A stretch of DNA of 59,207 nucleotides. Source: Escherichia phage ECO111 5-P. The notes below the pieces were generated by a model. It did no database searches. It was given only the letters and a program-made list of their open reading frames with translations, and was not told the DNA's origin. The DNA is taken from the sequence record OR844767. One strand, given 5' to 3'. Within the stretch, counting starts at the first letter, position 1; every line of letters starts with the position of its first letter. The position numbers and the translations under genes are program-made. Below are positions 326-59,207 of this stretch, in pieces.

Positions 326-372
326 CGGTTTACTGTTTTACGGGTTTACTTTCTACGGTTTTACGGGTTTAC
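326..372 (-). repeat. tandem 15-bp repeat GTTTTACGGGTTTAC (x2, plus a third partial copy) in the 5' leader of the SSB-like gene
   Basis: plus-strand copies at 335-349 and 358-372 with a partial CGGTTTAC at 326-333; lies between the nuclease stop (369-371) and the SSB start (314). Confidence 0.6.
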
Positions 373-1709
373 ACTTCGTCGTCATCATCTTCATCGTCCC
401 ACGCCCCGGAATACTTGCCGTCCAGTGGTGGCCGCTTATCGGTCAGCGGTGCCAGTGTCGGTTTGCCTTCCGGCTTGTAAACGATCCCCGCGATAATGTT
501 TGGCGCGCCAGCCCGGGACACGCCCAATTCATCCCTAAGCACTTCTTCCATCTGCGCCGGAGTACGCAGTTTGCGCTCGATGTACTTGTCCTCTTCGATG
601 TCGAGGAACTTGAACAACGCGATCGCATCTTTCTCGTTGGCGAATTTGCGGTTTGTCCGCGACTCCACCAGCTTTTGACCCGGCACCTTCTCACCGTTCA
701 TTGCGCGGCGTTCCAGTTCGAAGTCAAGGCGCGAGAACCAGTTTTCGACCACCTTGCGGTATGGCAGGATCTTCGCCATCTGCTCGGTTGTCAGGTTTCC
801 GAACTGCGCACGCCGGAATTTATACTCCTGCGCCAGCGCATCACGCAATACTGACATTTCTTCCTCCCCGAATTCGGATTCAAGGAATTCCACATCCCCG
901 CCCACCGCGCATTCCATCATGTACGCTATCGCTGCGCAGTTATGTGCTGCCCGGCAAAAGCGACACCCTTTCAGGGATGCGCGGCGCGGCGCGTTAAGGC
1001 TCCATGCCGCTGCAATCCGCTCCCGGGCGTACTCCGCAAACTCCAACAACTCGTCAAGCGTGATTTCCCACGTATCGAAGTGGTCGAGTCGCGGCTGCGC
1101 AATCCGGATGATGATACGGTCAAACTCGTATTCATCCGCAAAAGCACGGTACGCACCGTACGCGTAAAGTAGCGCCTGCGGGTTCCCTTCCGCGAAAACC
1201 TGAACACCAGTACCGTATTTCAGGTCGGTCACGATCAAGGTGCGGTCACGGATGATGATGTTATCCGCCGTTCCGCCCTGAGCGACAAACTCGATCGGTT
1301 CTTCGTCAGGTTCATCCGGGTTCGCTCGCGGCATCAGGTCGGTAAACCAGACCCGGATTTCCGTGAACATTTCACCCTCTTCAAATCGGCACCAGTCCAC
1401 ATACTCCTGAACGTAGTCGATCATTGACCGCGTGATGGGGATGTCATGGCTGACATCGCCTTCCGTGATCGTCTCGACGGTACCGATTAAATGGGTTGGC
1501 CGGACATCAGTTCGCAGCCATTGTTCGGCGATTCCGTGGGCCACCGTGCCTTCCGCCGCCTCGTAGATGGTTTCGTCATGCTCGAAAAGCCCGGCTATCA
1601 GGCTCCCGGAACATGCTATCCACCGCGCTGACGCAGAAGGCGCGAAGATTGAGTGGCCGCCACCGCCGAATTCCCGCATGATGCGGACTAACAGTGACTT
1701 ACTACTCAT
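369..1709 (-). CDS. PD-(D/E)xK nuclease with C-terminal 4-Cys cluster (Cas4/RecB-like, DUF2800-type)
   Basis: 446 aa; TDLKYGTG motif typical of DUF2800/PD-(D/E)xK nucleases; GCRFCRAAHNC...MEC cysteine cluster; ATG at 1709; ends ...GAWDDEDDDDEV. Confidence 0.6.
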   Translation of the reverse strand: MSSKSLLVRIMREFGGGGHSIFAPSASARWIACSGSLIAGLFEHDETIYEAAEGTVAHGIAEQWLRTDVRPTHLIGTVETITEGDVSHDIPITRSMIDYVQEYVDWCRFEEGEMFTEIRVWFTDLMPRANPDEPDEEPIEFVAQGGTADNIIIRDRTLIVTDLKYGTGVQVFAEGNPQALLYAYGAYRAFADEYEFDRIIIRIAQPRLDHFDTWEITLDELLEFAEYARERIAAAWSLNAPRRASLKGCRFCRAAHNCAAIAYMMECAVGGDVEFLESEFGEEEMSVLRDALAQEYKFRRAQFGNLTTEQMAKILPYRKVVENWFSRLDFELERRAMNGEKVPGQKLVESRTNRKFANEKDAIALFKFLDIEEDKYIERKLRTPAQMEEVLRDELGVSRAGAPNIIAGIVYKPEGKPTLAPLTDKRPPLDGKYSGAWDDEDDDDEV

Positions 1710-2031
1710 TCGGATACGCCTTTATCGCGTTGAGGAATCGGTGTTGGCCGACTCGCTCAATCGTCGCTACTAATGCCCTAACGCCTGCCCCGCTGTAATT
1801 ATTGCGGCCTGCGTTAAAGCGAGTCTTCGCCACGTCGTCCCACAAGACGTCACATACTCGATAGCCCGATGCAGCATGGGTTACGAGCAGCGGCGCTTCG
1901 AGTTTCGACACAGGTGAAGTAACTCTGAACAGCACATCGCGATCACCGATTTGAAAACGAAACTCCGCCCACGTACGCGCGAGAACTGCGCCGCCGGATG
2001 TTGCTACGTTGGTGAAAGTAATGCTGGTCAC
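1702..2031 (-). CDS. hypothetical protein
   Basis: 109-aa ORF with GTG start at 2031 preceded by GGAGAGG RBS; no internal Met; overlaps nuclease start by 8 nt. Confidence 0.35.
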   Translation of the reverse strand: MTSITFTNVATSGGAVLARTWAEFRFQIGDRDVLFRVTSPVSKLEAPLLVTHAASGYRVCDVLWDDVAKTRFNAGRNNYSGAGVRALVATIERVGQHRFLNAIKAYPNE

Positions 2032-2053
2032 AATTGCCTCTCCGTTGGTTGTG

Positions 2054-2078
2054 AAAAACGGCCCCCCGAAGGGAGCCG
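2054..2078 (-). terminator. intrinsic terminator/attenuator inside the replication operon
   Basis: minus-strand hairpin CGGCUCCC-UUCG-GGGGGCCG followed by UUUUU, between genes 2094..2495 and 1702..2031. Confidence 0.4.
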
Positions 2079-58781: not shown

Positions 58782-58798
58782 GTCAACGCTCCTGTATG

Positions 58799-58821
58799 AA
58801 AAAAGCCCGCACACGGCGGGC
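58799..58821 (-). terminator. intrinsic terminator/attenuator between the SSB and DNA polymerase genes
   Basis: minus-strand hairpin GCCCGC-5 nt loop-GCGGGC (plus 58805-58821) followed by UUUUUU (plus A-run 58799-58804). Confidence 0.6.
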
Positions 58822-58847
58822 CTTGAATTACCGCCCGAGGGCGTGAA

Positions 58848-59207
58848 TTACACTTCGTCTTCCCAATCTTCGTCTTCATCCCACGCATCAGACGTGTCAA
58901 CGCGACCTTCACCGAACGGCTCGTCGTCTTTGCGTTTGAGAACGGAAATCAGGTTGGCGTTGACGCGTTTGCCGAATTTGTTTTCCTGCGACCACGGACG
59001 GATGACGACAGACACCCAACAACCACCGTAGATCTCATCCAGAATTTCGGAAGAGGTAGTCAACTCTTCGCGCTCGATGTTATACACATCCGGGCGTTTG
59101 CTTTCGCGCGCTGAGATAACCCACATCCCTTCGCATTCCGGTTTGTCCGGGAAATCGGTGTCGCCGTCTTTGATGAACAACATGGACGGGGCAACTTTCA
59201 GCGCGCC
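58848..59207 (-). CDS. ssDNA-binding protein (DUF2815-like), C-terminal segment of the junction-spanning gene
   Basis: stop at 58848-58850; reading frame continues through the window end into 78..314; full product about 190 aa ending ...DAWDEDEDWEDEV. Confidence 0.6.
   Translation of the reverse strand, partial: GALKVAPSMLFIKDGDTDFPDKPECEGMWVISARESKRPDVYNIEREELTTSSEILDEIYGGCWVSVVIRPWSQENKFGKRVNANLISVLKRKDDEPFGEGRVDTSDAWDEDEDWEDEV
59131..59207. repeat. 77-bp terminal duplication of bases 1-77 (circular assembly overlap)
   Basis: exact identity of 59131-59207 with 1-77 by direct comparison; 77 nt is a common assembler k-mer length. Confidence 0.9.

Follow-up and report, generated by a model that had tools for sequence, protein, structure and literature searches.

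Nine proteins encoded by Escherichia phage ECO111 5-P end in the tripeptide [DE][DE]V, and three more have related endings (Table 1). We analysed the whole stretch of 59,207 bases (the window), which is the complete genome of a Chi-like siphophage (Chivirus, Casjensviridae) with 92-97% DNA identity to Salmonella phage Chi and its relatives. Protein identities from Pfam and PHROGs place the tail on about ten different folds. We propose, with a probability of roughly 0.6, that these tails are a co-evolving C-terminal docking motif of the kind carried by gp2.5 and gp4 of phage T7, that is, one short linear motif on unrelated proteins. The set tagged in this way would comprise an SSB/annealase (SSB denotes a protein that binds single-stranded DNA), a primase-helicase, a DUF2800 exonuclease, an RdgC-like protein, an SNF2 helicase, a Dam methyltransferase, the small terminase subunit (TerS), a DUF7443 protein, and several uncharacterized proteins.

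A first-pass annotation of this DNA had listed such tails on "at least ten" proteins. All of the tails that it listed are present in the sequence, but nine of them are [DE][DE]V in the strict sense and the remaining three are the related ends. Its positions agree with ours except for two genes, which start at 12029 rather than 12059 and at 15355 rather than 15361. In a Pfam search of the window proteins, the tails sit past the recognized domains; the DUF2800 match, for example, stops at residue 427 of the 446-residue nuclease, before the tail. With their free C-termini, the tail peptides of the window include GAWDDEDDDDEV-COOH, YSGAWDDEDDDDEV, VPGEWDDEV, and NGDEVDDDEV.

Genes were called by a codon-usage score and cross-checked against two annotated relatives, which gave about 66 proteins. 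The 9 of 66 proteins that end in [DE][DE]V compare with 0.08 expected from amino acid composition (binomial P = 2e-16) or 0.12 expected from the frequency of internal tripeptides (P = 5e-15). We also used a stricter tail class, in which the last residue is hydrophobic and three or more of the four positions before it are acidic. A further 299 open reading frames (ORFs) lie outside the gene set and are at least 50 amino acids long; a single one of them has a [DE][DE]V end, and the stricter class is not represented. The window has 9 proteins in this class, whereas the control genomes have none (lambda and T1) or one (T7, whose gp2.5 qualifies and whose gp4 narrowly misses). Nine tails against about 0.1 expected, together with these shadow ORFs and control phages, rule out chance or composition as the origin of the tails.

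We mapped orthologues in whole genomes from five other genera of Casjensviridae, represented by the phages Enc34 (host Hafnia), Soft (Klebsiella), JC01 (Cronobacter), PM87 (Proteus), and Sano (Xylella). The stricter class has 9 members plus TerS in Enc34, 8 plus TerS in Soft, 5 in JC01, 4 in PM87, and 0 in Sano. In Enc34 and Soft, the same proteins carry the same tail and V is always last. JC01 has the endings F, F, I, I, I, and L. Five proteins of PM87 have L, L, M, I, and L, and the PM87 primase (ETDVF) fails the tail definition. In Sano, which is distant, the SSB alone has an acidic tail (DDDDDIGL), and TerS has the same DDIGL near its end. The first-pass annotation had held that its proposal would fall if close relatives lacked the tails; on the contrary, the tails are conserved in orthologues across genera.

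Two protein families show which part of the C-terminus is conserved. All 27 homologues of the DUF7443 protein that we found end in D[DE]EV or EDEV. In an alignment of 21 of the homologues with the window protein (22 sequences), the N-terminal 56 residues are conserved, a linker of about 40 residues that is rich in Ala, Lys, Glu, and Gln drifts in both sequence and length, and beyond the N-terminal domain only E96 and V97 are invariant. Among the 20 closest homologues of the DUF2800 nuclease (P0001-P0020), the ending is [DE]V in 19 and EI in the other, and the acidic run varies in length behind a conserved aromatic residue. Because the DUF7443 tip is fixed behind a drifting linker, and because the acidic runs of DUF2800 are variable, the tail looks like a short linear motif on a flexible tether, and these alignments indicate that purifying selection acts on the tip only. 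Other properties are also those of a short linear motif: the tails are short, lie past the folded domains, are conserved amid unconserved flanks, and occur on unrelated proteins, and they have been gained or lost between orthologues (of the DUF7609 protein, the primase, TerS, and Enc34 ORF51). The DUF7609 tail is present in the Enc34 and Soft orthologues and absent from those of JC01 and PM87, which is a lineage-wise gain or loss, and Enc34 ORF51 ends in DEDNEV while its window orthologue is tail-less. Farther out, the strict tail is present in 68 of the best 120 DUF2800 homologues, with F-D-[D/N]-L-D-E-E-L as a frequent form, and in 98 of the 120 the last eight residues include four or more acidic ones.

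The last residue of the tail changes between genomes, and the proteins of one genome change together. To the five genomes we added distant contigs, which are 10-kb flanks around remote DUF2800 and TerS homologues from metagenomes and prophages. Their common gene order is primase, regulator, small protein, DUF2800, SSB, family A DNA polymerase (PolA), VRR-NUC, SNF2, TerS, and large terminase (TerL). In each contig, the same set of proteins is acidic-tailed and the ending is specific to the genome. For example, contig L016 has EDDEL on the primase, DADEL on DUF2800, DDADL on the SSB, DDDEL on a 272-residue protein, EDLEL on SNF2, and EDEEL on TerS. Contigs L017, L018, L019, L021, and L023 have mostly D/E-L endings, carried as in L016 by the primase, nuclease, SSB, TerS, and SNF2, and L020 has I and L, while six proteins of L022 end in G-L: the small protein (DSGL), the SSB (NGGL), a 100-residue protein (NRGL), SNF2 (YGGL), TerS (FQGL), and DUF7443 (DGGL). 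The gene for phrog_7721 lies two genes upstream of the nuclease gene in the window and directly upstream of it in relatives, and in the distant contigs the protein at the equivalent position bears the ending of its own genome.

We quantified this agreement by shuffling the terminal residues among genomes within each protein family. The observed agreement was 154 and the mean of the shuffles was 73; none of 20,000 shuffles reached the observed value. With a single representative of the clade whose tails end in V, the agreement was 89 against a mean of 53, and again none of 20,000 shuffles reached it. We read the within-genome agreement as a common constraint, which would most simply be one common receptor with a lineage-specific pocket. 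Genome-wide switching of the ending, which we see here, would be expected if the tails co-evolved with a receptor. Furthermore, the ending tracks the lineage of the phage rather than its host: V is found in Salmonella, Hafnia, and Klebsiella phages, and I or F in the Cronobacter phage JC01. This argues for a receptor that is encoded by the phage. Taken together, orthologue conservation, the position beyond Pfam domains, the invariant tip, and the joint switching strongly support the suggestion, already made in the first-pass annotation, that the tails may be a common docking tag.

Table 1. Proteins with acidic C-terminal tails, and tail-less candidate receptors, encoded in the window. Orthologue endings are from other Casjensviridae genomes and distant contigs.
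Protein	Gene	Tail	Strand	C-terminal residues and remarks	Orthologue endings
DUF2800 / PD-(D/E)XK exonuclease	369-1709	372..404	-	AWDDEDDDDEV	
phrog_7721, 133 aa	2094-2495	2097..2114	-	GEEDDV	EEEEV, EEDDV, ADDDF, DDDDDL
PrimPol/DUF5906 primase-helicase	3015-5597	5577..5594	+	EWDDEV, then hairpin and T-run	DDEDEV, DDDEV, EETDVF, EDDEL, DDDDL, QDDDI
DUF7609 protein	12029-12430	12410..12427	+	ADDDEV	
RdgC-like protein	13573-14649	14620..14646	+	NDDEDDDEV	EEDDEV, EDDDEV, DDDDDI, VEDDM
phrog_6886, 248 aa	15355-16101	16081..16098	+	EGEVEI, weak tail	EEDVEI, EEDVEI, TDEESI, TEDATL
Dam methyltransferase	17869-18555	18538..18552	+	MWDEI, short	WDEI, WDEV, WEDL, FDDL
phrog_8098, 238 aa	21968-22684	22667..22681	+	FEGDEV (tail EGDEV), weakest member	CEEI and CEVL only
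DUF7443 protein, 97 aa	46684-46977	46687..46701	-	GAEDEV (tail AEDEV)	
TerL, large terminase, lambda gpA type (GpA_ATPase + GpA_nuclease)	51780..53855		-	tail-less; candidate receptor for TerS and DUF7443 tails	
TerS, DUF1441 small terminase	53845-54414	53848..53874	-	GDEVDDDEV	
SNF2 helicase	54401-55876/55960	54404..54421	-	VWDDEE; overlaps TerS start codon	WDDEED, WDDEDD; in distant genomes EDLEL, EMEEL, YGGL
PolA, family A DNA polymerase	56742..58781		-	tail-less; candidate receptor; isoelectric point 8.2, net charge +3, among few large basic phage proteins	
gp2.5-type SSB/annealase	58848-59207, then 78-314 over the circular junction	58851..58886	-	AWDEDEDWEDEV	

The likeness between the tails of the nuclease and the SSB extends beyond this family of phages. 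A gene module duf2800-gp2.5-polA has been described for phages, and tails are not mentioned there (PMC8093625); the window contains this module (369-1709, the SSB gene, and 56742-58781). DUF2800 is found in many other phage families, and in four lineages beyond Casjensviridae the tail of the DUF2800 nuclease resembles that of the adjacent gp2.5-type SSB (DDFDxL-like). These are Staphylococcus phage IPLA35 (nuclease SAEDDFDKL; SSB SAAEDDFDELDTDDEDFL, that is, SAAEDDFDEL...), Bacillus phage PBC1 (nuclease SDFEGEDFDV; SSB VDFEDEDFDIDLG..., that is, DFEDEDFDI...), Vibrio phage 1.075.O (nuclease TEEFDKL; SSB ADDFEVIDDEDF, that is, ADDFEVI...), and Bacteroides phage ARB14 (nuclease SDFDIEG; SSB EDDFDDES...). 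A related motif occurs in Jerseyvirus sidste, on the nuclease (TEDDLEA), the helicase-primase (TEGDLE), and the protein at the SSB position (DLEDDEDE). The resemblance is weak in Streptococcus Javan494, and in the Casjensviridae phage RcPutin the motif is on the nuclease (DDFDDLD) and not clearly on the SSB. It looks as if the sharing of the SSB tail motif by the nuclease is old and widespread and as if Chi-like phages extended the motif to many more proteins. In a 2026 preprint, the C-terminal region of a DUF2800 nuclease is mentioned as disordered and is not discussed further.

The first-pass annotation considered it unusual that a terminase subunit should be tagged, and this now seems less odd. 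Among 107 close homologues of TerS, 90 have the strict tail, whose last residue shifts from V in the nearest group to I in a middle group and L in distant homologues. In an exhaustive search for representatives at 31-50% identity, 105 of 148 end in L, mostly after acidic residues. Judging from these homologues, the tail is nearly universal in the DUF1441 TerS family. The DUF1441 match covers residues 30-175 of the 189-residue window protein, and the acidic tail lies beyond this core. In phage PaP3, TerS has a disordered acidic C-terminal tail (PMC7672466), and work that is cited in the same paper credits the tail of P22 gp3, its TerS, with recruiting TerL. Unlike those tails, the tail of the window TerS has a tip motif in common with proteins for replication and recombination from its own genome, and the tip changes along with theirs; we found no description of such sharing for other terminases in the literature that we searched. 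The DUF7443 gene lies directly after the major capsid gene, which is the position of the packaging chaperone FI in lambda. An AlphaFold2 model of the DUF7443 protein from the 22 homologues had a mean pLDDT (predicted local distance difference test) score of 51, which is too low for a fold comparison with lambda FI.

How might such a motif work? We infer partner binding, and the identity of the partner, from a motif whose excess, conservation, and genome-wide co-variation are observed directly. In the motif, an aromatic residue is followed by acidic residues that vary in number and then by an aliphatic C-terminal residue whose carboxylate is free; in the lineage of the window, its form is [W/Y/F]-D-[D/E]...-[D/E]-E-V. 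The tail would be a flexible peptide that resembles single-stranded DNA and docks in a basic site of its partner that has a small hydrophobic pocket. The tagged proteins would then be recruited to, and compete for, the same receptor or a few receptors.

Three receptors stand out as the best candidates: the groove in which the gp2.5-type SSB binds DNA, PolA of the phage, and, for the tails of TerS and DUF7443, TerL. The SSB groove has partial structural support by analogy with Enc34 ORF6, which is 87% identical to the window SSB; a near-identical relative of the window SSB is annotated as gp2.5-like, and PF10991 marks the syntenic gene in relatives. In the crystal structure of Enc34 ORF6, which has a T7 gp2.5-like fold, the acidic tail, as far as it can be traced, occupies the DNA-binding groove of an adjacent molecule (PMC5686142). 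This SSB binds single-stranded DNA by two aromatic stacks and electrostatic contacts, and deletion of its tail leads to binding of double-stranded DNA and a changed DNA specificity (PMC5686142). A peptide with aromatic, acidic, and aliphatic parts is thus a plausible mimic of single-stranded DNA for the SSB groove. PolA is a candidate by the precedent of T7, and TerL by the precedent of P22. Our attempt to map the basic patches of T7 gp5 onto the window PolA was unusable (BLASTP E = 0.026 over 58 residues); the nearest solved structures to the window PolA are fragments of Pol theta. The N-termini of TerL proteins were variably basic and uninformative when compared.

Gene context cannot separate these candidates, as TerS, SSB, PolA, and TerL always co-occur in the contexts that we examined. 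We looked for a DUF1441 TerS outside the replication module, which would have separated the receptors, and even TerS proteins at 35-42% identity were in the same Casjens-like synteny. We also looked for genomes with duf2800-gp2.5 and without PolA, and all 7 of the 7 that we examined have a large gene at the PolA position, which is annotated as DNA polymerase in 5 of the 7 and not in Vibrio 1.075.O or ARB14. The C-terminus of PolA has a conserved pattern of its own, G-[W/F]-x-x-x-[F/Y]-Y-[R/K/M/Q]-K-D, in module phages from Salmonella to Staphylococcus, Streptococcus, and Bacillus (this comparison used the window gene at 56742-58781 on the minus strand and contigs L017, L020, L022, L023, L025, L027, and L028); in some Pseudomonas-like relatives, the end of PolA contains CxxC or is acidic instead.

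Several points weigh against docking on a common receptor. Computation yielded candidates for the receptor rather than a single protein. In the crystal of the Enc34 SSB, the last 11 residues of the tail are disordered and the terminal Val was never seen bound (PMC5686142). The PolA of contig L021 itself ends in IEGEDL, and therefore PolA is unlikely to be the sole receptor. There are weak members (phrog_8098 and phrog_6886), SNF2 lacks a hydrophobic end in the clade with V, and the tail has been lost from the primase of JC01 and from TerS of PM87 with no obvious compensation. Finally, the co-variation test is confounded by shared ancestry, and the three genomes with V are one clade, which inflates the scores; still, descent accounts for agreement of orthologues between genomes and not for agreement of ten unrelated proteins within one genome.

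The tails might instead be a functionless by-product of ribosome-binding sites and start codons of downstream genes that lie in gene ends, of slippage-prone GAY/GAR runs, or of a general acidity of C-termini. GAGGTG, which is also a Shine-Dalgarno sequence, would code for E-V, and some junctions fit: the RdgC tail reads GAG GTT TAA CA ATG, at the distance of a ribosome-binding site from the next start; an inner DEV of TerS (GAC GAG GTG) lies 7 nt before the ATG of TerL, again at that distance; and the SNF2 and TerS tails overlap the ATG of the following gene within GATGACGA. At the SNF2/TerS junction, GATGACGAAG holds the TerS ATG, and at the TerS/TerL junction the last 11 nt of TerS overlap the start of TerL, whose ribosome-binding site is likely the inner GAGGTG. 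In both places (54401-54421 and 53845-53874), the next ATG lies inside the acidic tail codons GAT GAC GA(A/T) G. Since the SNF2 and TerS tail codons contain the start codon or ribosome-binding site of the next gene, these tails are dual-coding. But the final codons are mostly GAA GTN instead of GAGGTG, with GAA for the terminal Glu in 7 of the 9 tails, and non-coding DNA comes next after five tails (those of the nuclease, the 2094 gene, the primase, the 12029 gene, and the SSB). In two of these cases, the 2094 gene and the primase gene, a hairpin and T-run lie on the 3' side, which for the primase looks like a terminator. Furthermore, in contig L016 TerS and TerL do not overlap, and TerS and SNF2 retain acidic-hydrophobic tails without gene overlap; the constant tip of DUF7443 behind its drifting linker implies selection on the protein; and control genomes and shadow ORFs lack such tails. 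The codons, the downstream context, and the non-overlapping relatives rule out ribosome-binding sites and start codons as the source of most tails, and these would be a secondary constraint only, at the RdgC, TerS, and SNF2 junctions. A by-product origin of the tails as a whole is scarcely credible.

Self-regulation is a stronger rival, and we still consider it unlikely: each tail would act only in cis, as a DNA mimic on the DNA-binding surface of its own protein, where it would tune affinity or specificity without any shared partner. Most of the tagged proteins do bind DNA, the tail-less Enc34 SSB binds double-stranded DNA (PMC5686142), and T7 gp2.5 is reported to have its DNA binding and dimerisation regulated by its own tail (PMC10359462). 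However, action in cis leaves unexplained why ten folds have the same last residue in each genome and switch it jointly between genomes. The tether of about 40 residues and the invariant tip of DUF7443 resemble a reach for a partner, and the tail of the nuclease mirrors the SSB motif in four outside lineages, with a related motif in Jerseyvirus. Decidedly less probable than self-regulation is that the tails dock not on a phage protein but on one of the host, such as a partner of the host SSB, a thioredoxin-like processivity factor, or a protease adaptor. The tails of E. coli SSB dock on many host enzymes, which would be a precedent, and the endings do differ where the hosts are distant, with V in phages of Salmonella and L in Pseudomonas-like phages. 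In T7, a host factor builds one of the patches that bind the tail (bioRxiv 10.64898/2026.05.20.726333). Yet phages of related enterobacteria have different endings (V in the Klebsiella phage Soft, I or F in the Cronobacter phage JC01), one ending spans Salmonella, Hafnia, and Klebsiella phages, and the motif is unlike the tip of the host SSB (DDDIPF), which the SSB of phage T1 does carry.

There is a broader possibility about which we are doubtful: in Casjensviridae, the tails might form an address system without a clamp, in which one phage-encoded hub reads the acidic-aliphatic tag on proteins of the replisome, recombination, methylation, and the terminase and physically couples replication and recombination to packaging. 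The genome-specific ending (EV, DEL, GGL, DDI/F) would evolve together with the hub as a code private to each genome, so that relatives infecting the same cell would not mix their machinery, and the likeness of the nuclease and SSB tails across the duf2800-gp2.5-polA module would be the ancient core of the system.

Some features of the genome are separate from the tails. An exact repeat of 77 bp (1-77 and 59131-59207) joins the ends of the window. The genome, assembled as a circle, has 59,130 bp, and the repeat is probably a k-mer overlap that the assembler did not remove. Because the assembly is circular with this overlap, the SSB gene runs over both ends of the window. In the spacer between the nuclease and SSB genes (335-368), ACCCGTAAAAC occurs in two exact copies 12 nt apart, with two near-matches elsewhere in the window, and the pair may be a regulatory repeat. 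The region 5600-12000 has a G+C content of about 51% (56-59% elsewhere) and small minus-strand genes that are poorly conserved even among relatives of Chi; it probably serves as an early or accessory region. At 27062-32066 on the minus strand, genes for proteins of about 250-410 residues lie next to one another in a row. Four of these proteins have similar C-termini (LQFGIITR, APFGVIVRP, AEFGVRSVI, and FGFVIRMGLV) that are kept in Enc34, JC01, and PM87, and the row looks like a paralogous family in the tail-fibre region. In contigs L021 (from Pseudomonas aeruginosa), L018, and L019, an integrase gene and a repressor-like helix-turn-helix gene lie between SNF2 and TerS, and the order of replication and packaging genes is the same. 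These elements look like prophages or temperate members of a family that is generally considered lytic.

If the tails do share a site, these phages would be a simple model, tractable by genetics, for the way in which many DNA enzymes gather on a single platform in a virus that has no sliding clamp. The paradigm of two T7 proteins would be widened to a network that includes the terminase, and the link from replication and recombination to packaging could be tested with peptides and tail swaps. A code of endings within each genome predicts incompatibility between related phages, and the natural variants in specificity would help to map the receptor. Mimicry between the tails of the nuclease and the SSB may explain why cognate pairs of exonuclease and annealase are needed, which is relevant to duf2800-gp2.5 recombineering tools.

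Among known systems, the first-pass annotation likened the tails to those of E. coli SSB and of T7 gp2.5 and gp4. The E. coli SSB tail is also acidic and disordered, has a hydrophobic end, and is a docking peptide in DNA metabolism, but the topology is inverted: there, one tail serves more than a dozen pockets, while here there are nine to twelve tail-bearers. The window SSB also ends in WEDEV, without the I-P-F that T1 SSB has in its DDDIPF. Clamp-binding motifs (the PIP box for PCNA or QL[SD]LF for the beta-clamp), EEVD-TPR, and PDZ ligands are alike only in their logic, with one short terminal motif that directs many DNA enzymes, a methyltransferase and nucleases among them, to one platform, and the clamp-binding motifs are far less acidic than the window tail. 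D-E-V-COOH formally fits the [D/E]-x-hydrophobic pattern of class III PDZ ligands. No clamp, TPR, or PDZ protein turned up in the phage, where we made no systematic search for them. The Dam of phage T1 has no tail like that of the window Dam.

The T7 analogy is apt, as the window has a gp2.5-type SSB and the same kind of tail on its SSB and its primase-helicase. In T7, the gp4 tail binds two basic patches of gp5/thioredoxin and the gp2.5 tail competes (bioRxiv 10.64898/2026.05.20.726333); the tails of the window would likewise compete for one site or a few. The T7 tails (...WDEDDEESEEADEDGDF and ...TDWSNDTDF) and those of the window (...AWDEDEDWEDEV and ...EWDDEV) have in common an aromatic residue, an acidic run, and a hydrophobic end. 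The last residue is Phe in T7, Val here (invariant in close homologues), and Leu, Ile, or Gly-Leu in relatives. The window PolA is too divergent from gp5 for the patches to be mapped. In the literature that we searched, on Enc34 SSB, gp2.5/gp4 tails, DUF2800/DUF2815, Casjensviridae, and TerS tails, we came across no account of one tail on many proteins, and the structure paper on Enc34 treats the SSB tail alone (PMC5686142). The principle, with two proteins sharing a tail, is known from T7. What appears to be new is the scale, with nine to twelve tagged proteins instead of two, among them a nuclease, RdgC, SNF2, a methyltransferase, the terminase, and a head-region protein, as well as the genome-specific endings and the likeness of nuclease and SSB tails across phage families.

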